64,000 nucleotides of DNA, from positions 83,387-147,386 of the forward strand of contig CAXYCJ010000006.1 of assembly GCA_964275585.1 (NCBI GenBank), in the 5' to 3' direction. The notes under the pieces were generated by a model. The model saw only the letters and a list, made by a program, of their open reading frames with translations, had not been told where the DNA came from and ran no database searches. This document shows, piece by piece, positions 10,659-61,392 of this stretch (positions are counted from its first letter, which is position 1; every line of letters starts with the position of its first letter). Source of the stretch: an uncultured SAR86 cluster bacterium. GTDB lineage: Bacteria > Pseudomonadota > Gammaproteobacteria > Magnimaribacterales > D2472. A program made the position numbers and the translations under genes.

Positions 10659-10901
10659 ATGAATATTTATGTTGGAAACCTCCCATGGAGTATTGATGAC
10701 TCAGGTCTTGAGCAAGTTTTTGCTGAACATGGAACTGTAACATCGGCTAGAGTTATCACGGATCGTCAAACTAACCGCTCACGCGGGTTTGGTTTTGTTG
10801 AAATGTCTGATGGCGGCGAAAATGCCATTCAAGCATTGAACGATGCTGAAGTTGACGGTAGAAAATTAGTTGTTAACGAGTCTCGTCCAAGAGACGAATA
10901 G
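10659..10901 (+). CDS. RRM-type RNA-binding protein (copy 1)
   Basis: 80 aa. RNP-2 IYVGNL and RNP-1 RGFGFVEM. Confidence 0.9.
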
Positions 10902-10912
10902 GAAGGATTTAT

Positions 10913-11152
10913 ATGAATATTTACGTAGGAAATCTCCCTTGGAGTATAGATAGCTCAGGTCTCGAGCAAGTTTTTGCTGAACACGGTACCGTAACCTCTG
11001 CTAAAGTTGTCACTGATCGTGAGACTAATCGCTCACGTGGGTTTGGTTTTGTTGAAATGTCTGATGGCGGAGAAAATGCCATTCAAGCATTGAACGATGC
11101 TGAAGTTGACGGTAGAAAATTAGTCGTTAACGAGTCTCGTCCTAGAGATTAA
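10913..11152 (+). CDS. RRM-type RNA-binding protein (copy 2, tandem paralog)
   Basis: 79 aa. Four aa substitutions relative to copy 1, with the same RNP motifs. Own Shine-Dalgarno (GGAAGGA). Confidence 0.9.
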   Translation: MNIYVGNLPWSIDSSGLEQVFAEHGTVTSAKVVTDRETNRSRGFGFVEMSDGGENAIQALNDAEVDGRKLVVNESRPRD

Positions 11153-30895: not shown

Positions 30896-31091
30896 ATTTT
30901 ATTAAATCCTAATGAAAATAAATATCAAGCTTAAACAAAACTAGCCTACATAAAGATAGGAGATTTGTGCTTGAACGCTGCATCTCTTGGATGTATATTC
31001 ATAATAGCAGGTAGATAGTTGCTTAGAACTCTTCTGTCAGAGGAGAACTTCAAAAGTTTTCAAAGTTTTCAAATTGGGTAATACTGGTTAT

Positions 31092-31564
31092 ATGAAAACA
31101 TTAATCCTCATCGCAGCCACCTTTTTCATAATCAATATCTATGCATTACCTCAATGTCCATCCGACACAGCTGCAAGATGGCATAACTGTTTTGGCACTT
31201 ACACTTTTGCCAGTGGAAGCAAATACGTTGGCGAGTTAAAGATGGCAAGCGGCACGGACAAGGCACTTCCACTTTTCCCAGTGGAGACAAATACGTTGGG
31301 GAGTATAAAGATGGCAAGTACCACGGACAAGGCACTTTCACTGTTGCCAGTGGAGGCAAATACGTTGGCGAGTACCAAGATGGCAAGAGGCACGGACAAG
31401 GCCACGGACAAGGCACTTACACTTCTAAGGGTGGGACTGAACAGACTGGATTTTTTTTGAATGGTTCATTTGTACCCTATCTCTGTGAAGAAATGGGGTT
31501 AACTCGAGGCACTGATGCATATGGGCAGTGTGTTATTAAATTAATAGAAGAAGTAACTAAATGA
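31092..31564 (+). pseudogene. Secreted MORN-repeat protein gene interrupted by a 1-nt frameshift
   Basis: Signal peptide MKTLILIAATFFIINIYA, then GSKYVGE. After 31236 the MORN consensus (YKDGKRHGQGT..) continues only in the +2 frame through to the TGA at 31562-31564. Repeat 1 is 68 bp against 69 bp for repeats 2 and 3 (GAGTTAAAG vs GAGTATAAAG). Confidence 0.7.
31194..31399 (+). repeat. Three tandem ~69-bp MORN-coding repeats
   Basis: Units start at 31194, 31262 and 31331, each GGCACTT..AAATACGTTGG.GAGTA..GATGGCAAG..CACGGACAA. An extra 12-bp GGCCACGGACAA partial repeat follows. Confidence 0.85.
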
Positions 31565-43337: not shown

Positions 43338-45509
43338 GTGTCAGACAATTATATTGCTAAAGGCTCCTTATCAGTTTCCATTAAGTTAGATGAATTCTTA
43401 ACCTCAGAGGTCTTACCTGGTCTGAATATTACACCAGATCATTTTTGGAATAGTCTTGAGGCAATAGTGCAAGAATTTGGCCCTCGCAATAGAAAGCTTT
43501 TAGAGTTCAGAGAGACACTTCAAAAGAAAATTGATGATTGGCATTTGTCCAATAAAGGTCAAACTCATGAATTTGAATCCTACAAATCTTTTCTTAAGGA
43601 AATCGCCTATTTAACCGAAGATAAAGGCGAATTTACAATCGAAACTCAAAACGTTGACCCTGAAATTGCAACCATTGCTGGGCCTCAGTTAGTCGTTCCA
43701 GTCATGAATGCTAGATTTGCATTGAACGCAGCCAATGCTAGATGGGGAAGCTTATATGATGCTCTTTATGGCACAGATATGATTGCCGAGGATGATGGAG
43801 CAACTCGGTCTGGGACATACAACCCTGTTCGTGGAGATAGAGTCATTGCATTTGCCAAAAATTTTTTAGATAAGCATTTTCCTTTAAGTCAGGGATCTTA
43901 CAATGATGTTTTATCATTCTCCTTGGTTGATAACACTCTTAGCATGGGCACAGTTAATGGAGAATTAATTTCTTTAATAGATGCTGCTCAGTTTCAAGGA
44001 TATCAAGGCTCTGCTGAAAACCCTTCAGGCATTCTGCTTAAAAATAATAATCTGCATGCAGAAATTCAAATTGACCCTAGTCATTCTATTGGTGCAACAG
44101 ATAAAGCAGGGATTAAGGACGTCTTATTAGAGTCTGCGATAACTACTATTCAAGATTGCGAGGATTCAGTTGCTGCTGTAGATGGTGAAGACAAAGTAGA
44201 AGTTTATAGAAACTGGCTTGGCTTAATGAAAGGAGATCTTAAAGAAACATTTGTTAAGGGTGACAGTGAAATGACCAGATCTCTCAATCCTGATCGAGAG
44301 TATCTGTCACCAAATGGATCTCAATTCTCAGTACCAGGAAGAAGTTTAATGCTAGTGAGAAATGTAGGTCATTTAATGACTAACCCAGCCATACTTGATC
44401 AAGACGGCCTAGAAATTCCAGAAGGAATACTTGATTCTATGTTCACAATTTGTATTGCTATGCATGACCTTAATGGAACCGGCCCCATCAAGAATTCTAG
44501 AGCTGGAAGTATTTATATTGTAAAGCCGAAGATGCATGGGCCAGATGAAGTTCAGTTTACTTGTGATTTATTTTCTGCTGTTGAGAAAGCCTTGGGCATG
44601 AAACATTTAACTGCCAAAGTTGGAATTATGGACGAGGAGAGGAGAACAACCGTAAATCTTAAAGAATGTATTCGCGTTGCAAAAGAACGTGTCATTTTTA
44701 TCAATACGGGATTCTTGGATAGAACTGGAGATGAAATTCATACAAGCATGGAGGCTGGTCCTATGATCCCAAAAGCTGAAATGAAGCAACAACCATGGAT
44801 CATTGCATACGAAGATTGGAATGTAGATTGTGGTCTTGAGACAGGCTTTATGGGCAAAGCACAAATCGGTAAAGGCATGTGGCCTATGCCCGATGAAATG
44901 CTCAACATGTATAAAATGAAAACAATGCATCCTGAGTCTGGTGCCAACTGCGCATGGGTTCCTTCTCCGACAGGGGCAACATTACATGCGATGCATTATC
45001 ATCAAATCTTAGTCTCCGATCAGCAGGAAAAACATATCAATAGACTTAAGGCGAGTCTTGACGATATCTTAACTATTCCATTAATGACTGATCCAACTTC
45101 ATTGTCCAGTGAGGCTATCCAGAATGAACTGGATAACAATGCTCAAGGTATATTGGGTTATGTTGTGCGCTGGATTGATCAAGGTGTTGGATGTTCAAAA
45201 GTTCCCGATATTAATAACGTAGGACTTATGGAGGATAGGGCAACGTGCAGAATATCAAGCCAACATATTACTAATTGGTTGCATCATGGCATTTGCTCTC
45301 AAGAGCAAGTGATTGAAACGATGAAGCGAATGGCTGTAATTGTAGATCAGCAGAATTCTGGAGATCCTCAATACCAATCCATGTTCCCATCTTATGACGG
45401 CATCGCTTTTGAAGCAGCATGCAATCTGGCTATTGAAGGGCGCACACAACCAAGCGGATATACTGAGCCCATTTTGCATGAGATGAGACTAAAGTTTAAA
45501 GCACAATGA
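43338..45509 (+). CDS. glcB: Malate synthase G
   Basis: 723 aa, colinear by eye with E. coli GlcB ([73 protein letters not shown]). GTG start. Confidence 0.95.
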
Positions 45510-49177: not shown

Positions 49178-49267
49178 ATTAATGCCTTTGAAATATAACT
49201 AAAACCCTTAGAAATTCGCAATCAACTTATATGTAAGAAAAAACTTCAACTTTTTTACAAAAAGGTG

Positions 49268-49295
49268 TTGACACTTTTAATCAGAAGCGTATATT
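49268..49295 (+). promoter_or_regulatory. Sigma70-type promoter of module copy 1
   Basis: -35 TTGACA (49268-49273), 16-nt spacer, -10 TATATT (49290-49295). A/T tracts upstream resemble an UP element. Confidence 0.65.
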
Positions 49296-49300
49296 AAATA

Positions 49301-49519
49301 GACCAACTCGGACCGACTTACAAACAACTGCAGACGGGAGTAAGAGAGAAAGAGAAGGTAGAGACGAAGGGCGAAAGCGATACTAAGAGTCGACGATAAA
49401 AAAGAGCTTAGTACCCCACCAAGAAGGCAAGAGAAAACCTTCAAGGAGCTAAAGAAAATCTCACTTTAGACCCCTTCTAACCTCGAACTGAAGAAACAGA
49501 GCTTGCTCTGTTTTTTTTT
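49301..49519 (+). ncRNA. Predicted ~220-nt purine-rich RNA (unknown family), copy 1
   Basis: Bounded by the promoter above and the terminator ACAGAG-CTTG-CTCTGT + T9 (49496-49519). No ATG anywhere in the segment and no ORF of 60 aa or more on either strand. Confidence 0.55.
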
Positions 49520-49547
49520 GCCTCAAATTACTTATATTTTATTGCTT

Positions 49548-50390
49548 ATGGATGATGATATAAAAGCTTTAATTGTAGAGGGTGGTGGCAGTCGAGGGGT
49601 CTTCTCATTTGGGGTAATAGACTCATTCATTCAAGCCTCATATAATCCTTTCAATCTTCATATCGGTGTCTCTAATGGCGGAGTAGTGCAGCTCTGGTAT
49701 TTACTTAAAACCAGTGATTACAACCTTGATAAGATGTTATTTTCCGCATCAAAAAAATACATTAGTTATAAAAATATTTTTTCTAACAAAAGTATCATGG
49801 ACTTTGAGAGGCTCTACCAGGATGCCAATAAAGTCTTCCCTATAGATTTTGATCGCTTGAAAGCAAATCTAGAGAATAAAAATTTTTACGTCGTTGTAAC
49901 CGATGCTGTTTCTGGCAAGCCAGAATATATTGAGCTCACAAGACAGAACTATGTAAATGAAATGCTAGCAACTGGATCTTTACCTGTGTTGATGAAGAAT
50001 CCTATTTTGTTAAATGGTAAGCGCAAATACGATGGAGGAATTGCTGATCCACTGCCGGTTCAAAAAGCTTATGAGATGGGCGCAAAAGATATTGTAATTA
50101 TCAGAACGTATGAAGAGTCTTTTATTAGAAAAACTAAATTAGAAAATCACATTGCTGCATTCCTGACTAAGTCATACCCCAATATTTCTGAGGCACTAAA
50201 AGTTAACTCTACTACTTATAATTCTTCATTAGAGTTTATAAATAACCCGCCTGCTGATTGCAGGATTAGACAAATTTGTCCACCTCAGAGATTAACTGCC
50301 AAACGGACTACAACTGATCTAAAAATTATGAAGGCGGACTATGCTATTGGTTTAGAATGCGGGACAAAATTTCTTCAGGAAGAGATATAG
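49548..50390 (+). CDS. Patatin-like phospholipase
   Basis: The ATG at 49548 gives MDDDIKALIVEGGGSRG (GGGxRG). GVSNGG nucleophile and DGG Asp motif. The ORF-track start at 49503 lies inside the upstream terminator. Confidence 0.8.
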   Translation: MDDDIKALIVEGGGSRGVFSFGVIDSFIQASYNPFNLHIGVSNGGVVQLWYLLKTSDYNLDKMLFSASKKYISYKNIFSNKSIMDFERLYQDANKVFPIDFDRLKANLENKNFYVVVTDAVSGKPEYIELTRQNYVNEMLATGSLPVLMKNPILLNGKRKYDGGIADPLPVQKAYEMGAKDIVIIRTYEESFIRKTKLENHIAAFLTKSYPNISEALKVNSTTYNSSLEFINNPPADCRIRQICPPQRLTAKRTTTDLKIMKADYAIGLECGTKFLQEEI

Positions 50391-50391
50391 A

Positions 50392-51291
50392 TTATTTTTC
50401 TTTTGCGAGCCAAGCTGTCATTCTTCCACCTAAAGGCGCCTTTAGTTGATCAGCACAGTAATCAACTATCTCAGATAGTTTTTGGAGATCCACACCAGTT
50501 TTATAGCCCATTTGATCAAGCATATTAGCTAGATCTTCTGTAGCAAGATTTCCTGCCGCGCCAGGAGCAAATGGGCAGCCGCCTAACCCCCCAATACAGC
50601 TATCAAATTTTCTAATTCCCTCAGCAAGTGCTGCGCACACATTAGCCAGTGCCATTGCTCGAGTGTCATGGAAATGACCTGATAAAATATTATGCTCAAA
50701 CTCATGAACGCATTTTTTAAATAATGAACCAACACTTGCTGGGTTAGCAGCACCAATAGTGTCAGCGAGTATAATTTCATCCGCTCCTGCACTTAGTAAC
50801 TTATTTGCTATATCAAGAACGGTTGCATTCTGTACCTTGCCTTCAAAAGGGCATTCCCAAGCAACTGAAACGTATGCTCGCGTTTTTAGATTTGAGTTTT
50901 TAGCATTTTTGAGGATATCGCAAGAGCTTTGAATAGTTTCGTTTAAGCTCATATTAATATTTTTTTGATTCATGGTTTCAGTTGCAGATGGCACAACTGT
51001 AATAATTTTTGCACCTGCTTCTTGCGCCATTTCAAAACCTTTCATATTTGGAACTAAGACAGAAATTTCACAACCTTTAGTCTCACCTAAGCCGTTAATA
51101 ATTTCTCCTGCTCCACTCATAGCTGGAACAGCTCTAGGATTAACAAAACTAGCAACTTCTATACCTGGAAGTTTAGCGTCAATAAGATGATTAATAAGCT
51201 CTAAGCGAGCCGCTGGATCTAAGATTGTTTTTTGGTTCTGGAGGCCATCTCTAGGTCCAACTTCGTTGATGTATACAAATTCTGAATTCAT
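50392..51291 (-). CDS. HMG-CoA-lyase-like (HMGL family) acyl-CoA lyase
   Basis: EVGPRDGLQN and GLGGCPFAPGAAGN signatures. Confidence 0.85.
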   Translation of the reverse strand: MNSEFVYINEVGPRDGLQNQKTILDPAARLELINHLIDAKLPGIEVASFVNPRAVPAMSGAGEIINGLGETKGCEISVLVPNMKGFEMAQEAGAKIITVVPSATETMNQKNINMSLNETIQSSCDILKNAKNSNLKTRAYVSVAWECPFEGKVQNATVLDIANKLLSAGADEIILADTIGAANPASVGSLFKKCVHEFEHNILSGHFHDTRAMALANVCAALAEGIRKFDSCIGGLGGCPFAPGAAGNLATEDLANMLDQMGYKTGVDLQKLSEIVDYCADQLKAPLGGRMTAWLAKEK

Positions 51292-52508
51292 TTAAGCATC
51301 TCAATTATTTTCTGAGCATCTAAGGACTCCAAATCTTCATCCGAATATCCTAACCACTCCATTAAAACCTCTCTAGTGTGCTCTCCCAAAAGAGGTGGTG
51401 CAAGAAACTCTTCATCTGTTACCTCTGATAGCTTAATCGGATTGCCTGGAATTTTTACTGAACCACCATTTCGATGAGGAACATCAACAAGCATATTTCT
51501 GTGCTTTACTTGCTCATCATTTATAGCTTGCTCAACATTATTTACTCTTGCGCATGGAACAGATTCTTTTTCTAGTAACTTTAGCCAATGCGAAGATTTT
51601 TCTTTTATTAATTCATCCTGAATAATTTTTTCAAGCTTGTCTTTATCTTTTTGCCTTTCATATGCCGTTACATATTTCGGGTCTTGCAATTCTCTGTTAT
51701 TGAACAATTTCAATAACCTTGGCCAGAATTGATCACCCACTGCTGCAATCACTATGGGATAATCTTTAGTAAGAAATGAGTTGTAAGGCATATGTACAAA
51801 ATGAGAATTACCAATAGGCTCTGGAACTATTCCTGACATGGTTTGCATGGTCGCCATGTAATTTAGCATGGAGATCTGACAATCAAGCATTGAAATATCT
51901 ACATGCTGACCCATTCCTGTATTAGCTCTATCAATAATGGCTGCCTGGATACCCATAACCGCAAACATGCCACCACTTAAATCTCCTATAGGTATTCCGG
52001 CTCGCATTGGCTCAGATGAGGAGAGACCAGTAATGGACATACCGCCCCCAAGCGCTTGAGCAATTTGATCAAATGCTGGGCGTTTAAAATTAGGCCCTGA
52101 CTCACCAAAACCGCTGACTGAGCAAGTAATTATCTTAGAATTAATAATTTTCAAACTCTCAAAATCAATTTTTAGTTTCTTGGTAACCCCAGCTGAGAAA
52201 TTACTTATTACTACATCTGCTTGCTCAACAAGCTCATAGAAAATTTTTAAACCTTCGGGTTTTTTTAAATCTAACGAGAGACTTTTCTTATTCCTGTTGA
52301 GCGTATAAAAATAAGCACCCATTCCATTAAAAGAATAATCTGGATCATTCTCTAATAGACGCCTCGTGCCTTCACCTTTTACTGGAGGCTCAATTTTTAT
52401 AACCTCACATCCTAGATCTGCAAGAATCATTCCACCATATGGTCCAGATAACATATGGGTTAAATCAAGCATTTTAATATTTTTTAGTGGCTTTCTAGAG
52501 GCTGTCAT
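51288..52508 (-). CDS. Family III CoA-transferase (CaiB/BaiF type)
   Basis: 406 aa. N-terminal LKNIKMLDLTHMLSGPYGGMILADLGCEVIKIEPP is typical of the family. Overlaps the lyase start by 4 nt. Confidence 0.85.
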   Translation of the reverse strand: MTASRKPLKNIKMLDLTHMLSGPYGGMILADLGCEVIKIEPPVKGEGTRRLLENDPDYSFNGMGAYFYTLNRNKKSLSLDLKKPEGLKIFYELVEQADVVISNFSAGVTKKLKIDFESLKIINSKIITCSVSGFGESGPNFKRPAFDQIAQALGGGMSITGLSSSEPMRAGIPIGDLSGGMFAVMGIQAAIIDRANTGMGQHVDISMLDCQISMLNYMATMQTMSGIVPEPIGNSHFVHMPYNSFLTKDYPIVIAAVGDQFWPRLLKLFNNRELQDPKYVTAYERQKDKDKLEKIIQDELIKEKSSHWLKLLEKESVPCARVNNVEQAINDEQVKHRNMLVDVPHRNGGSVKIPGNPIKLSEVTDEEFLAPPLLGEHTREVLMEWLGYSDEDLESLDAQKIIEMLK

Positions 52509-52670
52509 TTGTCTATTATATACAGATAGAAGTTAAGAGAAATATGTATCAAAATAGGACATATATCGATTATATAAATTTACTATTTTATGCTTTTAAA
52601 TAAGCATTGTTTAAATGATTGTTATGGTGTATAAAATTAGGACTACCATTGTTTTACTAGGGGGTAAAAT

Positions 52671-55130
52671 ATGTCTGTTTCTAACACATTTATTCGTTTT
52701 GCATTAGCGATTCCATTTTTCTTTATTTCATTAGCTTTACTTGCTGAGCCAACCCTTGAAGAAGTTGTTGTTTCAGCTAGGAAGGTAGATGAAAGTGTCC
52801 AGGATGTTCCAATTGCTATGAGTGTTTTCACTTCCAGTGATATAGAAGATGCTGGCATAGAGAGGCCTGAAGATTTTATAGCCTTGACACCGAATGTTGT
52901 CATGGCAAATACAGTTAATGTTGGAGATACCTTGGTAACAATTCGGGGCTTGACTTCAACTAGAGACGCAGAATCTAATTTTGCTTTCGTGGTAGATGGA
53001 GTCTTGCAAACCAACCCTAATGCATTCAACAGAGAGCTTTTGGATATAGCTCAAATTGAAGTTCTTAAAGGCCCCCAAGGAGCTCTTTATGGAAGAAATG
53101 CTACATCTGGAGCTATTTTGATAACAACCAAAGCTCCTTCCGAAGAATCCGAAAGTACAGCAGTCCTTGGAATGGGTATTAATAATTCCTCCAAGTTGCA
53201 ATATGTAAATTCTGGAAAAATAGGTGATAACGTATACACAAGATTTTCAGTGAGCACACGCGAAACTGATGGAGAGCACACAAACGTCTATTCAAATCTT
53301 AAAAATGTAGATTTCTTTGAAGACACAACTTTAAGAGGAAGGGTGTTAGTAGAGGAAGACGATAGTTCTTGGGATTTTAGGTTTGGAATGAGTGAGGCAA
53401 GTGGGGGAACCATTAATTTTAATGCTGTTTTTGCACTACCGGCATTCCAAGGGTTTGGAACCCCAGGGGCAACTCAGTTCTTTAAAGATGTTAATGAACA
53501 TCAATTTACATATATGTTCAATGTCCCTCCGGTCAATGAACAAGAAACATCAGACCTTTCTGTTAAATATACAGAAGACCTTGTGAACGGAAGAGAGTTT
53601 TCTGCGATATTTGCTTACAACCACCTTGAAGAGTTTTTACTTTCTGATGGTACCTCAGGTGCTTTCGGTGGTTACTTTGGAGTTCCTGCTTGCGCCGCTT
53701 CAAATACAGCAGCTAATTTAGCTTTGATTAATTCTTTACCTCCCGGTTTTTCATTTGCTGCTCCCGGAACAGCTCCTTCTGGAGCTAACTCTGTTTTAGG
53801 ACCATACTTGCCTCATACATGCGATGGGTATCAATTCCAATCACGTGATCAGGACGATATTTCTATCGAAGTAAAATTAACTAGCAATCAAAATGAATCA
53901 ACTCGATGGTTAGTTGGCGGATACTATGCTGAAATTGAAAGAGATGTTGCAGTTTCATACGGAGCTGATTTAGGCAAAGGTTTTGAATACAAGTCTTATG
54001 TTCCTTCAACGGGAAAAAATCCTACAGATTTAGCATTTGACGATACCTTCACTACAGACGTTTTCTCAATTTTTGGGCAATATTCCATAGACTTATCTGA
54101 GGTTACAGAGCTTTCGTTTGAAGGTAGGTATGACAAGGAAAAACGTTCTGTTGATAACAATGTTCCTGCTAGATCTTCGGCCCTATACTATGGTGGCGGC
54201 GCTCCAATTAATCCTGCTATGACAGCAGGTGGAAGTAAAATTCCCTCGCGAGAAAAATCATATGATCAGTTTCAACCTAAAATTTCTTTAACAACCAGCG
54301 CTGAAAATACAACAGTTTATGCTTCTTATGGAGTTGGCTTTAGATCAGGAGGATTTAATTCATCTGGAAGTGCTGCTTTAATAAATTCTCAGCTAAATAT
54401 TCCCGTTGGAGCTGGGTTAGGTGTTTCGGATTCATTTAATAAAGAAGTCTCTAAATCATTTGAAGTTGGGTTTAAGGGTAGATATTTAGACGGAAGATTG
54501 GAAATCAATGGCGCTCTTTTTGAAACTGAAGTTGATGATAATCAATTTTTTGAATTTTTTGCTGGACCTTGGGGCTTACTGAGAGTCGTAACTTCTATTG
54601 ACCAACTTGATCTTAGTGGCTCAGAGTTAGACTTTAAATATGCGCTTACTGATAATATCAAATTAGATGGCGGTGTTGGTTTTACAGATGGTGAAATTAA
54701 GAAGAATGCTCATCGACCTAACACTGTCGGCAATAATGCACCCTTAGCTCCTGAGCATACCTACAATCTTGGTATGCAATACGAAACATCTTTCTCAGCA
54801 AATTATGATCTCATAGTTAGGGTAGATTACATGGAAGTTGGTGAAACTTGGTTCCATACCGTGCAAAATAATCAGCAACCTTCGGTCTGGGGAGCTTTAC
54901 TTGGATTTCCAGTTGCATCTGATATGAGCAAAGCAGTTCGTGATCCTTATACTTTAGTTGACCTAAGAGCATCTATTATTGGAGAAAAATTAAGCCTTAC
55001 TCTATGGGGTAGAAATATTACTGACGAAGAGTATCTTGCAGAGATTATTCCAGCTCCAGAATTTGGTGGATCTTTTATTCATCAGGCACCTTATGCTACT
55101 TATGGGTTAGACTTAAAATATAATTTTTAA
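52671..55130 (+). CDS. TonB-dependent outer-membrane receptor
   Basis: 819 aa. Signal peptide, plug LEEVVVSARKVDESVQDVPIAMSVF, C-terminal ..YGLDLKYNF. Confidence 0.9.
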   Translation: MSVSNTFIRFALAIPFFFISLALLAEPTLEEVVVSARKVDESVQDVPIAMSVFTSSDIEDAGIERPEDFIALTPNVVMANTVNVGDTLVTIRGLTSTRDAESNFAFVVDGVLQTNPNAFNRELLDIAQIEVLKGPQGALYGRNATSGAILITTKAPSEESESTAVLGMGINNSSKLQYVNSGKIGDNVYTRFSVSTRETDGEHTNVYSNLKNVDFFEDTTLRGRVLVEEDDSSWDFRFGMSEASGGTINFNAVFALPAFQGFGTPGATQFFKDVNEHQFTYMFNVPPVNEQETSDLSVKYTEDLVNGREFSAIFAYNHLEEFLLSDGTSGAFGGYFGVPACAASNTAANLALINSLPPGFSFAAPGTAPSGANSVLGPYLPHTCDGYQFQSRDQDDISIEVKLTSNQNESTRWLVGGYYAEIERDVAVSYGADLGKGFEYKSYVPSTGKNPTDLAFDDTFTTDVFSIFGQYSIDLSEVTELSFEGRYDKEKRSVDNNVPARSSALYYGGGAPINPAMTAGGSKIPSREKSYDQFQPKISLTTSAENTTVYASYGVGFRSGGFNSSGSAALINSQLNIPVGAGLGVSDSFNKEVSKSFEVGFKGRYLDGRLEINGALFETEVDDNQFFEFFAGPWGLLRVVTSIDQLDLSGSELDFKYALTDNIKLDGGVGFTDGEIKKNAHRPNTVGNNAPLAPEHTYNLGMQYETSFSANYDLIVRVDYMEVGETWFHTVQNNQQPSVWGALLGFPVASDMSKAVRDPYTLVDLRASIIGEKLSLTLWGRNITDEEYLAEIIPAPEFGGSFIHQAPYATYGLDLKYNF

Positions 55131-55147
55131 CTAGGAATTAAATTTTT

Positions 55148-57208
55148 ATGTCGTATCGATTAGGCGTTGATGTTGGTGGAACCTTTACTGATTTTTTATT
55201 AATTAATGAATCTGATGGTTCCACGCATACTGCCAAGGTTCCTTCCACCCCCGAAGATTCATCGATAGGCGTCCTAAATGGTGTTTCAAGAATTTGCGAT
55301 CAATCAGGTGTAGATCCTAAAGATATCAAGCTAGTCATGCATGGAACTACAGTTGCAACTAATGCAGTTCTAACTGGTAATGGAGCAAAAGTAGGCCTAT
55401 TAACTACCGCAGGATACGAAAGTGTGCTCCAAGTTGCTCGTTCATTCTGTCCTGGTGGGCTTGGTGGCTGGGTTAGCTTTGTAAAGGGTCCTTTGCTAGC
55501 ACCTTTAGAGCTTACTTATGGGATAAAAGAAAGAACTGATGCATCGGGCGAAATTTCAATACCTTTAGATGAGCAGCACCTCAGAGAGCAATTAACCAAA
55601 TTAAAAACATTGGATCAAGTCGAAGCCTTAACAATTAGCTTTGTCAATTCATATATCAATAATAAGAATGAAGTTCTTGCTGCAAAAATTGCAAGTGAAA
55701 TTTTTACAGATGTACCTATTTCCATATCTAGTGAAGTTATTCCTGAGATGCAAGAATATGAAAGAGCTGAAACAACTGTCCTGAATTCTTATGTCCGTCC
55801 ACAAGTATCAAACTACGTTAACAACTTACAATCAAATCTAGAACAATCACTGGGAAGAGATGTTCAGTTATCTATTTTGAGATCTGATGGAGGGCTTGCG
55901 TCAAGTAGAGCTACTGGAGAGTCTCCAGTAAATCATTTGATGTCTGGTCCAGCTGGAGGAGTTGCAGGGGCAGTGCATTTCTGCAATCAAGCAGGCTATG
56001 AAAATATTTTAACCTTTGATATGGGTGGAACATCTACTGATGTAGCTTTGATACAGAATTCTAAAGCAAAGGTTAGAAGAGAGACTTTAGTTGGAGATGT
56101 GAGAGTCAAAGCTCCATCCGTTGACGTTAGAACTGTTGGTGCTGGTGGTGGCTCAATTGCTTTTGTACCCGAACTCACTAAAGCACTTCGTGTTGGACCA
56201 GAATCTGCTGGAGCAGTCCCTGGACCAGCAGCGTATATGAAAGGTGGAGATTTGCCTACAGTTTGTGATGCTAATATTGTTTTGGGTGTCCTTCCAAGCG
56301 ATGTTCAGCTTGGCGGTGATATGGTCATTGATAAAGAAGCGGCTGAAAAAGCAGTTCAAATAATTGCTGATGGAATTGGTATTGATCTTATGGAGGCAGC
56401 AGAAGGAATTGTCAGAATTGTAAATGAATCTATGTTTGGAGCCTTGAGATTAGTTTCAGTTGAACAAGGCTTTGACCCGAGAGATTTTGCTTTAGTTGGG
56501 TTCGGAGGCGCTGGACCCCTTCATGCAAATGCCCTTGGAATTCTCTCAAATTCTTTTCCTGTAATCATTCCGCCTGGTCCAGGAGTTTTATGTGCTTATG
56601 GTGATGCAACAACTCAAATTCAAGACGAAGCATCAAGGTCATATTTGGCTATGGCTCAGGACATCACTACAGACAAATTTTTATCAGATTTAAATGATCT
56701 TAAGATTAAAGCATCACAATCTTTATTAAAAGATGGTGTTAGTGATTCTAACCTTGAGGTAACTTATCAAGCAGATGTTAGGTATGCAGGCCAAGCATTT
56801 CAAATTACTGTTGAGTTTGATGAGAGGGAATACAAGTCGAAGGGAATTCAATTAATTACAGAAGCATTTGATGATGAGCATTATCAACTATTCACCTTTA
56901 AATTAAGTGATGGCCATGAAATCTTAATGATTAGAGCTATTGCAAAAGTTGCTCAGTCCGAAATTAAAGCACCTTCAATGACAGGCTCTTCTGGGTCCTT
57001 GCAAGATGCTGTTATTCAAGACTCACGCTTTTATAATGAAGCCAAATGGCATGATGCTAAAATTTATGATCGTAATAAGTTACATTCAGAATTAGTTATT
57101 CCAGGTCCTGCAATTGTTTCTGAGATGGACTCAACAACGGTGATACTTCCCAATCATGAAGCGGCGGTTGATCAAGTCGGTAACTTAATTATCAATCCTA
57201 TAACATAG
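55148..57208 (+). CDS. hyuA: Hydantoinase/oxoprolinase family, A subunit
   Basis: MSYRLGVDVGGTFTDFLL N-terminus, DMGGTSTDV, ~690 aa. Confidence 0.85.
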   Translation: MSYRLGVDVGGTFTDFLLINESDGSTHTAKVPSTPEDSSIGVLNGVSRICDQSGVDPKDIKLVMHGTTVATNAVLTGNGAKVGLLTTAGYESVLQVARSFCPGGLGGWVSFVKGPLLAPLELTYGIKERTDASGEISIPLDEQHLREQLTKLKTLDQVEALTISFVNSYINNKNEVLAAKIASEIFTDVPISISSEVIPEMQEYERAETTVLNSYVRPQVSNYVNNLQSNLEQSLGRDVQLSILRSDGGLASSRATGESPVNHLMSGPAGGVAGAVHFCNQAGYENILTFDMGGTSTDVALIQNSKAKVRRETLVGDVRVKAPSVDVRTVGAGGGSIAFVPELTKALRVGPESAGAVPGPAAYMKGGDLPTVCDANIVLGVLPSDVQLGGDMVIDKEAAEKAVQIIADGIGIDLMEAAEGIVRIVNESMFGALRLVSVEQGFDPRDFALVGFGGAGPLHANALGILSNSFPVIIPPGPGVLCAYGDATTQIQDEASRSYLAMAQDITTDKFLSDLNDLKIKASQSLLKDGVSDSNLEVTYQADVRYAGQAFQITVEFDEREYKSKGIQLITEAFDDEHYQLFTFKLSDGHEILMIRAIAKVAQSEIKAPSMTGSSGSLQDAVIQDSRFYNEAKWHDAKIYDRNKLHSELVIPGPAIVSEMDSTTVILPNHEAAVDQVGNLIINPIT

Positions 57209-57210
57209 AT

Positions 57211-59076
57211 ATGTCAGCAAAAATAATTGAAACTAATAACTCTCCTTTAAAGACAATAGATGTTGATGGCATCACTGTTGATTTAATTGAAAATGCCTTA
57301 AAGAATGCTAGAGAAGAGATGGATGCTTTAGTTAGTAGAACTGCTCTATCACCCGGAATTAGAGAACAGGGAGATTGCTTTCCAATGATAGCAAATCGCG
57401 AAGGAAAAATGGTTGTTGGTCAATTTGGTTCATTTATTCATGGTTTTACAGAAGCTTATGATGAAGAGATAGAAGAAGGCGATATCATCCTTACCAATGA
57501 TCCTTACATGTGCAATGCAGCAGTTTCACATTTACCAGATTGGATGGTTTTAAAACCTGTATTCAGAGATGGAAGGCACATAGCATGGTCTGCAATGTTT
57601 GGGCATATGTCTGATAATGGAGGGATGGTTCCAGGCTCTATACCAACCGAAGCGACAACCATCTTTCAAGAAGGGATTAGAATTCCTCCAATAAAACTTT
57701 ATAAAAAAGGAGAACTTCAGTCAGATGTATTGGAGCTTATTCTTCATAATGTCAGAACATCTCAATGGAATCGTTTTGATTTAAATGCACTTGTTGCTGC
57801 ATGCAATACTGCCGCGAAAAGATGTAATGAGATTGCAGATCGATTTGGGGATGATATTTTCTGCTCAACAATGAAAATTATGCTGCAAAGGAACTATGAT
57901 GCTATGAAGCATATTATTTCTATGTTTATTCCTGAAGAACCAAGAGAGTTCTCTGATTATATTTGTGATGATGGTATGGGCATGGGTCCTTATAAAATTC
58001 ATTGCAAGATGTGGCGGGAAGGAGATAAAGCTATTTTTGATTTCGTAGGCACAGATCCACAAGCTCAAAGTTCAGTTAATTTTTATCTTAACGAGGATAT
58101 GTTCAAAATGTTTTTTGGATCTTTCACCATTAACGTTGTTGATCCTCAAATTGTATTTAATGATGGGTTCTACGACTTGGTTGATGTCAGAATTCCACAA
58201 GGAACCCTCTTAAAACCTAATTATCCTGCCGCACTATCTGGAAGGACTCATGCACTGGGAAGAATTTTTGATGTTTTGGGAGCTCTATTAGGTATGGGTG
58301 CCCCTAACGAAATGTTGAATGCAGCAGGTTTTTCAGATTCACCCCATTTATTTTTCTCAGGTTACGATGATAAGGGAGAGTGGTTTCAGTTGTTCCAGAT
58401 AGGGTTTGGTGGAGTTCCAGGAAGGCCAATCGGTGATGGTCCTGATGGGCATTCCTTATGGCCATCATTCACAAATGTACCAAATGAATTTGTTGAGGCA
58501 TATTTTCCCCTAAGAGTAGAAACATATGAATTCATTGTTGACTCAGGTGGAGCTGGACTTCACAGAGGAGGCAACGGATTGTCAGTAGCATATAGATTTT
58601 TAGTAGACGGTCATATTGGCATTCATGATGATCGTTGGCTCACATATCCATGGGGAGTTAATGGAGGCAAGCCTGGCAAGAGATCAACTAAATTGCTTGT
58701 AAGAGCAGATGGATCCAAAGAGTACATTCCAGCAAAATGTGAGGGAGTAAAGGTTGAGAAAGGCGATCTTCTTTATTTTAATACTTGGGGCGGAGGAGGC
58801 TGGGGCGACCCCCTTCAACGTGATGCGGCTGTAGTCGCATCAGATGTCTCAAAAAAACTTGTTTCTATTGAGGGCGCCCTTAGATACGGCGTTGTAATTA
58901 ATGATGATCTCACAGTAAATGATAAAGAAACGGAATTATTAAGATCAGAGATGTCTAAGGATACTGTTCAAGATGAGATGTTTAATTTTGGCGGAACTAT
59001 AGAAGAAATCAAAGCCCGGTGTCTAGAAGAAACTCATCTAGAGCCACCTGTCTCTCCAACATTTCTGAATCAATAG
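57211..59076 (+). CDS. hyuB: Hydantoinase/oxoprolinase family, B subunit
   Basis: 621 aa. Blocks LTNDPYMCNAAVSHLPDW and SGGAGLHRGGNG are typical of HyuB. Starts 2 nt after hyuA. Confidence 0.85.
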   Translation: MSAKIIETNNSPLKTIDVDGITVDLIENALKNAREEMDALVSRTALSPGIREQGDCFPMIANREGKMVVGQFGSFIHGFTEAYDEEIEEGDIILTNDPYMCNAAVSHLPDWMVLKPVFRDGRHIAWSAMFGHMSDNGGMVPGSIPTEATTIFQEGIRIPPIKLYKKGELQSDVLELILHNVRTSQWNRFDLNALVAACNTAAKRCNEIADRFGDDIFCSTMKIMLQRNYDAMKHIISMFIPEEPREFSDYICDDGMGMGPYKIHCKMWREGDKAIFDFVGTDPQAQSSVNFYLNEDMFKMFFGSFTINVVDPQIVFNDGFYDLVDVRIPQGTLLKPNYPAALSGRTHALGRIFDVLGALLGMGAPNEMLNAAGFSDSPHLFFSGYDDKGEWFQLFQIGFGGVPGRPIGDGPDGHSLWPSFTNVPNEFVEAYFPLRVETYEFIVDSGGAGLHRGGNGLSVAYRFLVDGHIGIHDDRWLTYPWGVNGGKPGKRSTKLLVRADGSKEYIPAKCEGVKVEKGDLLYFNTWGGGGWGDPLQRDAAVVASDVSKKLVSIEGALRYGVVINDDLTVNDKETELLRSEMSKDTVQDEMFNFGGTIEEIKARCLEETHLEPPVSPTFLNQ

Positions 59077-59079
59077 CAC

Positions 59080-59670
59080 TTGAGTAAGCTCGAATCACAT
59101 CCTACTGGAATTGGCAGCTCTCCCGCTTTAGTGGTTGTTGATATGTGTCGAGGCTTTATTGATCCCACATCACCTCTTGGCTTTGAATGCGATGAATTAA
59201 TTGAAGCGAATATTAGATTGGTTAGTGAATTTCGAGAAAAGAATTTGCCTGTCATTTTTACTACCACTATCTATAGAGATCAATCTGAAGCAAGTGTTTT
59301 TAGATTAAAAATTCCTGCTTTAAATATTTTAAAACCCGGGTCTGAGGAAACATCATTTCTAGAAGAGCTGTCACCCAGTTCAAGTGATACGCTGATTGAA
59401 AAGAAATTTGCGAGTGCTTTTTTTGAGACTAATTTAGCCATTGAACTCCATCAAATGCATGTAGACTCAGTGGTTGTTTCTGGTGTTACAACAAGTGGCT
59501 GTGTTCGAGCCACAGCATTAGACTCTTTACAAAATAATTTTCTTACAATAATTGCAGAGGACTGCGTGGGCGACAGGGATTTGAATGCCCATCAAGCTAA
59601 TTTATTCGATCTACAAGCCAAGTATGCTGATGTAATTCTTTCTGAAGCAATTTGGAGAGAAAAAACTTAA
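59080..59670 (+). CDS. Isochorismatase-fold cysteine hydrolase (N-carbamoylsarcosine-amidase-like)
   Basis: ALVVVDMCRGF (Asp), EKKFASAFF (Lys), GVTTSGCVRAT (Cys) triad. TTG start 3 nt after the hyuB stop. Confidence 0.7.
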   Translation: MSKLESHPTGIGSSPALVVVDMCRGFIDPTSPLGFECDELIEANIRLVSEFREKNLPVIFTTTIYRDQSEASVFRLKIPALNILKPGSEETSFLEELSPSSSDTLIEKKFASAFFETNLAIELHQMHVDSVVVSGVTTSGCVRATALDSLQNNFLTIIAEDCVGDRDLNAHQANLFDLQAKYADVILSEAIWREKT

Positions 59671-59689
59671 ACTTTTTTGCAAAAAGGTG

Positions 59690-59717
59690 TTGACACTTTT
59701 AATCAGAAGCGTATATT
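59690..59717 (+). promoter_or_regulatory. Sigma70-type promoter of module copy 2
   Basis: -35 TTGACA (59690-59695), 16-nt spacer, -10 TATATT (59712-59717). Confidence 0.65.
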
Positions 59718-59722
59718 TAATA

Positions 59723-59941
59723 GACCAACTCGGACCGACTTACAAACAACTGCAGACGGGAGTAAGAGAGAAAGAGAAGGAAGAGACGAAGGGCGAAAGC
59801 GATACTAAGAGTCGACAATAAAAAAGAGCTTAGTACCCCACCAAGAAGGCAAGAGAAAACCTTCAAGGAGCTAAAGAAAATCTCACTTTAGACCCCTTCC
59901 AATCTCGAACTTAAAGAAACAGAGCTAGCTCTGTTTTTTTT
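59723..59941 (+). ncRNA. Predicted ~220-nt purine-rich RNA (unknown family), copy 2
   Basis: Terminator ACAGAG-CTAG-CTCTGT + T8. The stem is identical to copy 1 and the only change is in the loop. Confidence 0.55.
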
Positions 59942-59979
59942 CGCCTTAAATAAATTCATTTCATGTATGATTCGCGATT

Positions 59980-61392
59980 ATGACCCCTATTAAGACAAAA
60001 ATTATTGCAACCACTGGACCGAGCACGAACTCTTATCCAATGCTTAAAAAAATGCATGCTAACGGTATGGATGTTGTTCGATTAAATATGTCTCATGCGA
60101 CTCACAAAGAAGCTGCATTAATTATCGATCATGTTAATCAGTTAAATAAATTGCAATCAAATAGGTTTGGCCCACTTGGAATTTTACTTGATACCCAAGG
60201 TCCAGAGATTAGAACAGGAATTAGTAATCAGGATATAGATCTTAAGGTTGGCGATATTGTGAATCTAACCATAAGAGATGATGTGGATGTGGAAACATCA
60301 TCTATTAAAATTAACTACAAAGGTTTAATCAAAAGTGTTTCTAAGGGCTCAAAAATTACCATTGATAATGGTTTGATGAATTTTAAAGTACTGGCAAAAG
60401 ATAAAGAAAACCTGAGATGTAGAGTTTTAGATGGAGGCACCCTTGGAAGTAAGCGACATGTAAACCTTCCCGGTGTTAGAGTTGATCTCCCATCAATAAC
60501 AAAAAAAGATAAAAAAGATATTGCATTTGCTATTAAAAATAATGTTCCTTTTATCGCCTTATCTTTTGTGAGGAGTCCAAGTGATGTAATGGAACTCCGC
60601 GCTATTTTAAAGCGAAACAAATCATCTGCAAAAATCATTGCAAAAATTGAAAATCAGGAAGGGCTTGATAATATTCACGACATAACAAAAGCAGCAGATA
60701 TTATTATGGTTGCCAGAGGTGACCTTGGGATAGAGACAAATTTAGCTGATTTACCAAACATTCAGAGAAGAATAATGTACTCTACAGCCAAATGGGGAAA
60801 GCGCTCTATTGTTGCAACACATCTACTTGAGTCAATGATCGCTCATCCAGCCCCAACGAGAGCTGAAGTTACCGATGTAGCAAATGCAATATATGAGGGC
60901 GCCGATGCAGTTATGCTCTCAGGGGAGACTAGCGTAGGACAATATCCCCTTAAATGTTTGCAAATGCTTAAAAATATTGCAAGTAAAACAGAGCAATATA
61001 GAACTTTGGGTTATGAAGAGCATTTAACAGTTGATTCAGATTGGCAGAATATCGCTCTTGGAGCTAGAGATCTAGCTGAGCGTATTAAAGCAGATGGTAT
61101 CTTGGTTATTACAAGATCTGGTCAAACAGCCAACGTCATATCTAACACGAAGCCATTTAGAATGCCTATATATGCATTCACAAATAATCAAGAAACATAT
61201 CATCACCTGAGCTTAATAGGAGGCATTCAAGCTAAATTTATTAAATCCATTAGAAACCAAGCACAAACTATTTTAAAAATTAAAGCAGAATTACATAAAA
61301 CCATTAAACCTAGAAAAAACTTAAAATTTGTTTTGATTTCAGGTCTTTATTCAGAATCTCATACAGATTCCATTCAAGTTATTAAAATATAA
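59980..61392 (+). CDS. pyk: Pyruvate kinase
   Basis: TKIIATTGPS, RLNMSHATH, MVARGDLGIE, and a C-terminal regulatory domain. 470 aa. Confidence 0.92.
   Translation: MTPIKTKIIATTGPSTNSYPMLKKMHANGMDVVRLNMSHATHKEAALIIDHVNQLNKLQSNRFGPLGILLDTQGPEIRTGISNQDIDLKVGDIVNLTIRDDVDVETSSIKINYKGLIKSVSKGSKITIDNGLMNFKVLAKDKENLRCRVLDGGTLGSKRHVNLPGVRVDLPSITKKDKKDIAFAIKNNVPFIALSFVRSPSDVMELRAILKRNKSSAKIIAKIENQEGLDNIHDITKAADIIMVARGDLGIETNLADLPNIQRRIMYSTAKWGKRSIVATHLLESMIAHPAPTRAEVTDVANAIYEGADAVMLSGETSVGQYPLKCLQMLKNIASKTEQYRTLGYEEHLTVDSDWQNIALGARDLAERIKADGILVITRSGQTANVISNTKPFRMPIYAFTNNQETYHHLSLIGGIQAKFIKSIRNQAQTILKIKAELHKTIKPRKNLKFVLISGLYSESHTDSIQVIKI

Follow-up and report, generated by a model that had tools for sequence, protein, structure and literature searches.

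Two probable paralogous genes for the structured RNA IMES-1 (RF02034) in a SAR86 locus, and the recurrent self-complementarity of two of its loops

The RNA motif IMES-1, whose name stands for "identified in marine environmental sequences", was reportedly described by Weinberg et al. in 2009 (Nature), its transcripts reportedly having been seen first by Shi, Tyson and DeLong in the same year and journal, and it is said to be noted for its extreme abundance in marine metatranscriptomes. To our knowledge, it was originally absent from any cultivated organism and came from environmental DNA only. In the present work, a stretch of 64,000 nucleotides (nt) from an uncultured SAR86 cluster bacterium (contig CAXYCJ010000006.1; this whole stretch is hereafter called the window) was analysed, in which two modules of ~300 nt, 96-97% identical overall (49236-49533 and 59658-59956, plus strand, as are all the elements of both modules), very probably represent paralogous, self-contained genes for IMES-1 (Rfam family RF02034), an abundant structured non-coding RNA of SAR86. 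In Dupont et al. 2012 (PMC3358033), an abundant non-coding RNA is placed in a variable carbon-assimilation region of the SAR86A and SAR86B genomes, and RNA-based regulation of carbon assimilation is proposed in general terms; the RNA is not called IMES-1 there. The organism group and the kind of locus are the same as those of IMES-1 in the window, and on the SAR86A scaffold of that study (locus L014) IMES-1 is located between the genes of malate synthase G and pyruvate kinase, so that the two RNAs appear to be identical, judging from the genome and not from the alignment in the paper (Suppl. Fig. S5). Both the family and the host group were already known, and the finding is that of two paralogous genes of a catalogued RNA in a known host group, i.e., a rediscovery that opens no new class. 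New here is that two loops of the RNA are self-complementary across lineages, which suggests that it may pair with its own copies.

Pairing of this type is known from other RNAs. The dimerisation site of human immunodeficiency virus 1 (HIV-1) is a 6-nt self-complementary loop sequence flanked by purines, the variants of which (GCGCGC and GUGCAC) stay palindromic. IMES-1 resembles it in having self-complementary loop hexamers with computed self-duplex energies in the same range, whereas the HIV-1 element belongs to a viral genomic RNA and has a 9-nt loop, the two IMES-1 loops being ~18-19 nt long with A-rich tails. Natural RNA homo-oligomers held together by kissing loops or palindromic pairing have been described for OLE, HYER1, ARRPOF, ROOL and GOLLD; the OLE homodimer is formed by L4:L4' and L9.3:L9.3' kissing loops and the HYER1 assembly by palindromic pairing (PMC12990946; Kretsch et al. 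2025, PMC12286853). The likeness of IMES-1 to these RNAs lies in symmetric loop-loop or palindromic assembly, which for IMES-1 is predicted from covariation; it is not homologous to them in sequence or structure, its length is far smaller (~190-218 nt), and its assembly is putative, being deduced from sequence comparison. IMES-1 is absent from both of these papers and from a 2026 preprint on short-RNA assemblies, and no mention of its self-assembly was found in the searchable literature, which does not cover the original description of IMES-1.

When the whole window was scanned against Rfam 15 at curated thresholds, three hits were obtained, one being a tRNA-Gly and the other two matching RF02034 over its full length, located at 49307-49496 (copy 1; 196.5 bits, E-value = 1e-44) and 59729-59919 (copy 2; 193.5 bits, E-value = 8e-44). 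Both matches covered model positions 1-191 of 191 and scored more than twice the gathering score of the family (81 bits), so that the first-pass annotation of this DNA, in which the sequence was not recognised as any known Rfam family, was wrong on this point. No other Rfam family came near the modules at permissive thresholds, and no similarity to CsrB, CsrC, RsmX, RsmY, RsmZ or 6S was found in them even at E-values up to 10. The minimum-free-energy fold of the window RNA reproduced the RF02034 helices. The window copies are of the same family, with the same helices and no family-level difference; features found here beyond the RF02034 model are a conserved promoter, A/T tracts, a terminator, a possible ACC/GGU extension of the first helix, an order-wide distribution and the self-complementary hexamers.

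The repeat search of the window resolved the modules into a 257-nt direct repeat with 97% identity (49236-49492 and 59658-59914) and a terminator segment with 88% identity (49491-49533 and 59914-59956), in agreement with the first-pass annotation, which had listed a ~295-bp segment recurring at 59658-59953 with ~96% identity. The order of elements given there, with A/T tracts followed by TTGACA, a 16-nt spacer and TATATT, was likewise recovered in both copies. An A6-N7-T6 tract that resembles an UP element, and may function as one (49238-49256 in copy 1, 59660-59678 in copy 2), lies upstream of the -35 hexamer, and the promoter itself matched 11 of 12 consensus positions in each copy (49268-49295, with TTGACA at 49268-49273 and TATATT at 49290-49295; 59690-59717). 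The predicted transcripts extend over ~49302-49519 and ~59724-59941. Both ~218-nt RNAs are free of ATG, as had been claimed, and end in an intrinsic terminator, ACAGAGC-UU-GCUCUGU followed by U9 in copy 1 (49496-49519) and ACAGAGC-UA-GCUCUGU followed by U8 in copy 2 (59919-59941), which corresponds to the ACAGAG-CUUG-CUCUGU hairpin with U9 noted earlier. These plus-strand terminators were missed by an automated terminator scan, in which the hairpin of copy 2 came up on the minus strand only, because the U-run is consumed by A-U pairs that lengthen the stem; they were seen in the minimum-free-energy fold. The motif AAGGAG, earlier called Shine-Dalgarno (SD)-like, was found in both copies as CAAGGAGC (49442-49449 and 59864-59871). 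The core of the RNA, described as purine-only, is indeed purine-rich, but the share of purines in it is 84%; for the whole IMES-1 RNA it is 61%, versus 51% for the window.

Conservation was studied in 73 distinct SAR86 module sequences, which were aligned independently with MAFFT and onto which the Rfam structure was mapped. The -35 hexamer was present in all 73 modules (TTGACA in 57, and five of six positions matched in the others), the spacer was 16 nt in 72, and the -10 hexamer was TAATAT in 45 and TATATT in 18 (63 of 73 in total), while A-run and T-run tracts (≥5 nt, ≤40 nt upstream of the -35 hexamer) were found in 63. By its sequence, the predicted IMES-1 promoter is of a near-consensus sigma-70 type with upstream A/T tracts. 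The Rfam structure paired 92.2% of the alignment cells, versus 28-52% when the partners were slid by 1-3 columns, and 26 base pairs showed changes on both sides; the observed covariation score was reached by none of 500 shuffles. Strong covariation was found in five helices, and RNAalifold independently recovered the three 3' hairpins and the terminator. According to this structure, a 5' hairpin with a large loop is followed by a domain of several helices, which a long-range helix closes and which contains three hairpins besides a mini-hairpin of two base pairs capped by an invariant GAAA tetraloop (GCGAAAGC, 49371-49378 in copy 1; RNAalifold pairs columns 84/91 and 85/90). Among the long-range pairings that the first-pass annotation had proposed, GAAGGG/CCCUUC (the long-range helix 4) and GAAGG-N10-CCUUC (the hairpin of helix 6) covary and were upheld; CGACUU/GAGUCG showed no compensatory change, scored no better than shuffles and was discarded. 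The segments AACUGCAGAC, G-GAAAGC, CCACCAAG, CAAGGAGC and AAUCUCAC were invariant (CAAGGAGC being kept in 71 of 73 relatives), and GACCCCU also belonged to the invariant unpaired segments.

Three further observations concern the fold. The terminator stem ACAGAGC/GCUCUGU (49496-49511 and 59919-59933; columns 214-233, helix 8) was invariant in the 73 sequences, which cover the breadth of the SAR86 order, while the other helices covaried freely, which suggests a sequence-specific constraint that may go beyond hairpin formation. The predicted 5' end ACC (49302-49304) can pair with GGU (49357-49359), lengthening the first helix past the Rfam model; in one clade CC/GG is replaced by CG/CG, and in other sequences the pair is broken. 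A combination of the GAAA tetraloop with a CCUAAG receptor-like element was considered but is not claimed, such a sequence being present in only ~29 of 73 sequences and absent from the window.

Two loops of this structure carry self-complementary hexamers, namely, CUGCAG in the large loop of the 5' hairpin (49328-49333 in copy 1, 59750-59755 in copy 2) and GUCGAC in the ~19-nt loop of the longest hairpin, where an A-rich tail follows it (49389-49394 and 59811-59816). The first hexamer was CUGCAG in 70 of the 73 sequences and CUCGAG in the three sequences of the clade of the isolate HIMB1674, and it was always self-complementary. At the position of the second hexamer, GUCGAU (24 sequences), GUCGAC (20), GUUAAC (9), GUAUAC (6), GUCGGC (6), GUGCAU (3) and GUUGAC (1) were found; together with GUGCGC, these make up eight in-register types, each of which pairs with itself by Watson-Crick or G·U pairs. 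Antiparallel self-pairing of the hexamers held in 97.9% of cells, versus 22-60% in slid controls, and among 180 six-column windows of the alignment the two hexamers ranked first and second in self-complementarity (100% and 94.5%; median 0). Only 3 of the 18 single substitutions of GUCGAC keep self-pairing, and these are exactly the observed single-step variants. A metagenome scan with a pattern in which hexamer position 3 was forced to be non-C and positions 4-6 were left free gave 93 matches, all of them self-complementary (GUUGAC 39, GUGCAU 18, GUAUAC 17, GUUAAC 12 and GUGCGC 7). By parsimony on a neighbour-joining tree of 103 distinct sequences, built with the hexamer removed, at least 22 changes of the hexamer and at least 16 changes of its central dinucleotide were counted, all leading to self-pairing states (CG, GC, UG, AU and UA).

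No partner within the RNA was found for either hexamer, since no other segment was complementary to it in more than 2% of the sequences, and the adjacent central two bases of each hexamer are unable to pair within one molecule; an intramolecular partner was rejected on these grounds. A palindrome acting at the DNA level, such as an operator or a restriction site, was also rejected, because many variants are self-complementary only via G·U pairs, which fixes the transcribed strand, and the palindrome does not extend beyond 6 nt. The lack of a cis partner, the adjacency of the central bases and the G·U-only variants argue for pairing between RNA molecules. In the monomer ensembles, the hexamers were predicted to be mostly unpaired (probabilities of 0.58 and 0.69), and the computed energies of their self-duplexes ranged from -2.6 to -8.2 kcal/mol, compared with -7.9 kcal/mol for the HIV-1 dimerisation hexamer GUGCAC in the same calculation. 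Two features of the kissing-loop class, a functional class rather than a homology family, namely, a self-complementary loop sequence and variation that preserves self-complementarity without a cis partner, were found in IMES-1.

It may be proposed from this pattern that IMES-1 self-associates through kissing-loop pairs at two loops, which is the simplest reading of the loops and the mechanism preferred here, though a tentative one that falls just short of being probable. Several observations weigh against it: in the HIMB1674 clade the second palindrome is GCUAGC and is shifted by 3 nt, and the divergent sequence L078 retains only a 4-nt CCGG palindrome; some variants form weak self-duplexes (GUUGAC, -2.6 kcal/mol; GUUAAC, -3.4 kcal/mol); the evidence for the CUGCAG loop is a single double substitution in one deep clade; and the parsimony count depends on a tree of ~200 nt and could be inflated by recombination among copies. 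According to the proposed mechanism, the exposed CUGCAG of the 5' hairpin and GUCGAC of the longest hairpin would kiss the same loops of other IMES-1 molecules, and two kissing loops per molecule would give dimers, rings or chains. This would leave CCACCAAG, CAAGGAGC and AAUCUCAC, which are invariant and single-stranded, free to serve as a multivalent surface to which a protein or RNA partner could bind. IMES-1 probably acts in trans as a stable folded particle rather than as a leader of the downstream gene.

The first-pass annotation had offered two readings of the repeat, and that of a discrete multi-copy RNA gene with its own promoter and terminator finds support in its broad lines, the module being conserved as a whole in 73 sequences with covarying helices and occurring in one, two or tandem copies. 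The other reading, according to which IMES-1 is a cis-acting leader or attenuator, with a terminator that responds to a ligand, a protein or an RNA and so gates transcription from the strong promoter into the next gene (patatin at copy 1, pyruvate kinase at copy 2), is very unlikely, although the immediate surroundings speak in its favour. Both window copies are co-oriented with the next gene, at distances of 28 and 38 nt, the patatin-like open reading frame (ORF; PF01734 plus DUF6363) starting at 49548, 28 nt after the U-tract of copy 1, as had been stated. Pyruvate kinase starts 23-67 nt past the terminator in 19 of 20 distinct cases and patatin 22-42 nt past it in 16 cases. The wider survey, in which the next co-oriented ORF within 400 nt was recorded for distinct copies, gave pyruvate kinase 20 times and patatin 16 times, and otherwise mutually unrelated genes (pyruvate dehydrogenase E1, TonB-dependent receptor, SSF symporter, PhoD phosphatase, FAD monooxygenase and malate synthase) or, in some genomes (L018, L028), another IMES-1 copy in tandem; about 40 of 98 evaluable copies had no co-oriented ORF start within this distance. 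No single consistent class of co-oriented downstream gene was found, and given this variety and the ~40% of copies without a co-oriented gene, a sensor dedicated to one pathway is unlikely and IMES-1 is read as a stand-alone RNA gene. The terminator stem and the U8-9 tract are invariant, and inspection revealed no conserved alternative partner for the terminator arms, the best candidate, UAGAG, matching over 4-5 bp. In the window gaps (49520-49547 and 59942-59979), no promoter on the plus strand was detected by the consensus scan; the gaps nevertheless contain -10-like hexamers 8-17 nt before the ATG (TATATT before patatin, TATGAT before pyruvate kinase), so that the earlier remark that there was essentially no room for a promoter before the patatin gene is not compelling, and in several genomes the gap before the pyruvate kinase gene has its own TTGCAA-N16/17-TAATAT-like promoter. 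The patatin gene lacks an SD motif, as noted, but this is usual, as only 13 of 47 genes in the window carry an SD-like motif, and many mRNAs of the organism may be leaderless or have short leaders. The literature, moreover, describes an abundant discrete transcript. On the other side of the balance, the reading as a stand-alone gene is weakened by the proximity of pyruvate kinase behind IMES-1 in many genomes with no strong promoter in the short window gap, by possible low-level read-through into downstream genes, and by the fact that the 5' ends of the transcripts were placed from the -10 positions and that expression and high abundance are taken from the literature.

Two other readings accept a discrete RNA and differ from self-association as to how it would act, and both are considered unlikely, to the same degree. 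IMES-1 could be a protein sponge that titrates a regulator of the CsrA/RsmA type via GGA sites, or another RNA-binding protein, and so controls central carbon metabolism. It shares with CsrB, RsmY and RsmZ the character of an abundant multi-copy gammaproteobacterial RNA with its own promoter and terminator and a link to carbon metabolism: its abundance is very high according to the literature, there are several paralogous copies, it lies between malate synthase G and pyruvate kinase, two exposed GGA sites are near-universal (ACGG(G)A in the 5' loop in 65 of 73 sequences, CAAGGAGC in 71 of 73), and two tandem genes of RRM-domain RNA-binding proteins are present in the window (10659-11152). However, GGA is not enriched (5.3 per RNA, versus 4.5 in composition shuffles), just two GGA sites are conserved, versus many in CsrB and RsmZ, there is no sub-threshold similarity to the CsrB, Rsm or 6S models, and the self-complementarity of two loops is left unexplained, although the sponge reading is compatible with an oligomeric scaffold. 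CsrA, RsmA, Hfq and ProQ gave no tblastn match in the window and the SAR86 loci L001-L086 (~8 kb per genome), a result that is uninformative either way. Alternatively, IMES-1 could be a trans-acting small RNA (sRNA) that pairs with carbon-assimilation mRNAs via conserved single-stranded seeds, for which the invariant unpaired CCACCAAG, AAUCUCAC and GACCCCU would be available; its own promoter and its terminator with a long U-tail, as is typical of Hfq-binding sRNAs, are consistent with this. The RNA-based regulation of carbon assimilation put forward in Dupont et al. 2012 (PMC3358033) points in the same direction. A strongly covarying multi-helix fold of ~190 nt is, however, unusual for seed-type sRNAs, as is extreme sequence conservation across a whole order, and the very high abundance is easier to reconcile with a structural or stoichiometric role than with that of a catalytic regulator. 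Finally, it is scarcely credible that the repeat has no RNA function of its own and is instead a recombination site, or a fragment or end of some mobile element, that was duplicated when the 10-kb cassette was inserted. Direct copies do bracket a variable cassette in the window, in L040/L043 and in L115, and the locus varies among SAR86 genomes; but Pfam revealed no integrase or transposase in the cassette, just two tiny contigs of a viral collection carry the sequence, so that a phage origin was rejected as well, the full module is kept in single-copy genomes, and tandem paralogues with 87.5-89% identity both keep the structure. The RNA helices are preserved by compensatory changes, and the existence of G·U-only variants suggests that it is the RNA that is under selection, so that the covariation effectively refutes this reading, and with it the possibility, raised in the first-pass annotation, of a fragment of a known mobile element.

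The distribution of IMES-1 was examined by searching species-representative genomes for a 20-base pattern that was taken from the 3' half of the molecule and does not occur in shuffled versions of the window. The pattern was found at 86 places, nearly all in genomes titled SAR86 cluster bacterium or unclassified Gammaproteobacteria, including closed SAR86 genomes, the SAR86A scaffold and the isolate Magnimaribacter mokuoloeensis HIMB1674. Rfam confirmed L039 (HIMB1674; 145.5 bits), L014 (199.7 bits) and the tandem copies in L018. Only two 2-kb contigs of the viral collection carried the pattern; the window matched metagenome contigs from Fram Strait, and the carriers of IMES-1 were SAR86 genomes and marine metagenome contigs. 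IMES-1 is almost exclusive to SAR86 (order Magnimaribacterales). Contigs binned as Neomarinimicrobiota, Flavobacteriales, Woeseiaceae or SAR92 (L026, L047, L063, L072 and L078) also carry IMES-1, which probably reflects mis-binning, the flanks in L026 and L047 being SAR86-like (pyruvate dehydrogenase E1 and pyruvate kinase); IMES-1 might serve as a marker of SAR86 contigs. The HIMB1674 copy (CP151794.1; L039 5697-5880, minus strand) is divergent, and its hexamers CUCGAG and GCUAGC are changed yet self-complementary. HIMB1674 is the first cultured SAR86 isolate, and with it IMES-1 is no longer confined to uncultivated organisms. Since the lineage of this isolate splits off at the root of SAR86 (Freel et al. 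2024, PMC11582366), the RNA dates back as far as the order itself. A few contigs from metagenomes carry unrelated sequence immediately upstream of AACUGCAG instead of the 5' part of IMES-1, which could be due to truncation of the copy, to recombination or to chimeric assembly.

The synteny of the locus was conserved, with malate synthase G upstream (43338-45509 in the window, plus strand), pyruvate kinase (59980-61392, plus strand), a MarC-family protein and a LacI-type regulator downstream, and one or two IMES-1 copies with variable genes between them. Among the genes that follow IMES-1, pyruvate kinase is the most widely conserved. According to Pfam, the 10.1-kb cassette between the window copies (49548-59670) comprises the patatin-like lipase, an HMGL-like lyase and a CoA-transferase III (both on the minus strand), a TonB-dependent receptor, hydantoinase A and B, and an isochorismatase. 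The same cassette with two flanking IMES-1 copies was found in a related genome (L040/L043) and in a metagenome contig (L115, copies 10.4 kb apart); elsewhere, IMES-1 copies stand in tandem 303-325 nt apart or flank malate synthase on both sides. The window paralogues were 95.7% identical to each other and 93.5-95.2% identical to their own orthologues, values by which gene conversion between the two copies was not evident, and the duplication in the window is most likely due to homologous recombination inside the variable locus. Tandem head-to-tail genes, each with its own promoter and terminator, were observed in L018 (1619-1809 and 1922-2113) and L028 (~2207-2762). Such tandem paralogues are just 87.5-89% identical, with differences mainly in the first helix, and the fold is kept in both, which argues for selection on the RNA itself and hints that there may be two old paralogue types.

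Other features of the window include two tandem genes on the plus strand (10659-10901 and 10913-11152; a 254-nt direct repeat with 89% identity), which encode RNA-binding proteins of 80 and 79 residues with the RRM_1 domain (PF00076). RRM proteins are uncommon in bacteria, and the two might interact with an abundant RNA, for instance IMES-1. At a distance of ~39 kb from the patatin-like gene that follows copy 1 there is another gene for a patatin-like phospholipase (PF01734; 9666-10592, plus strand). An ORF of 128 residues (31074-31460), for which Pfam gave no match at E-values up to 1e-3, contains three in-frame repeats of 69 nt with 65-88% identity (31169-31374, plus strand).

Highly conserved and reported to be extremely abundant, IMES-1 has long been an orphan among RNAs. 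Its presence across the whole SAR86 order, including HIMB1674, means that experiments are now possible, and the covariation of the loops leads to a concrete hypothesis, that of self-association, which is cheap to examine and for which mutations offer clear controls. If this hypothesis is true, IMES-1 would form a quaternary assembly made of RNA only, or scaffolded by RNA, from a short and naturally abundant molecule, and would in principle be comparable with OLE, ROOL and GOLLD. The duplicated IMES-1 copies mark the edges of a variable catabolic cassette and are thus relevant to the gain and loss of carbon-use genes in SAR86.

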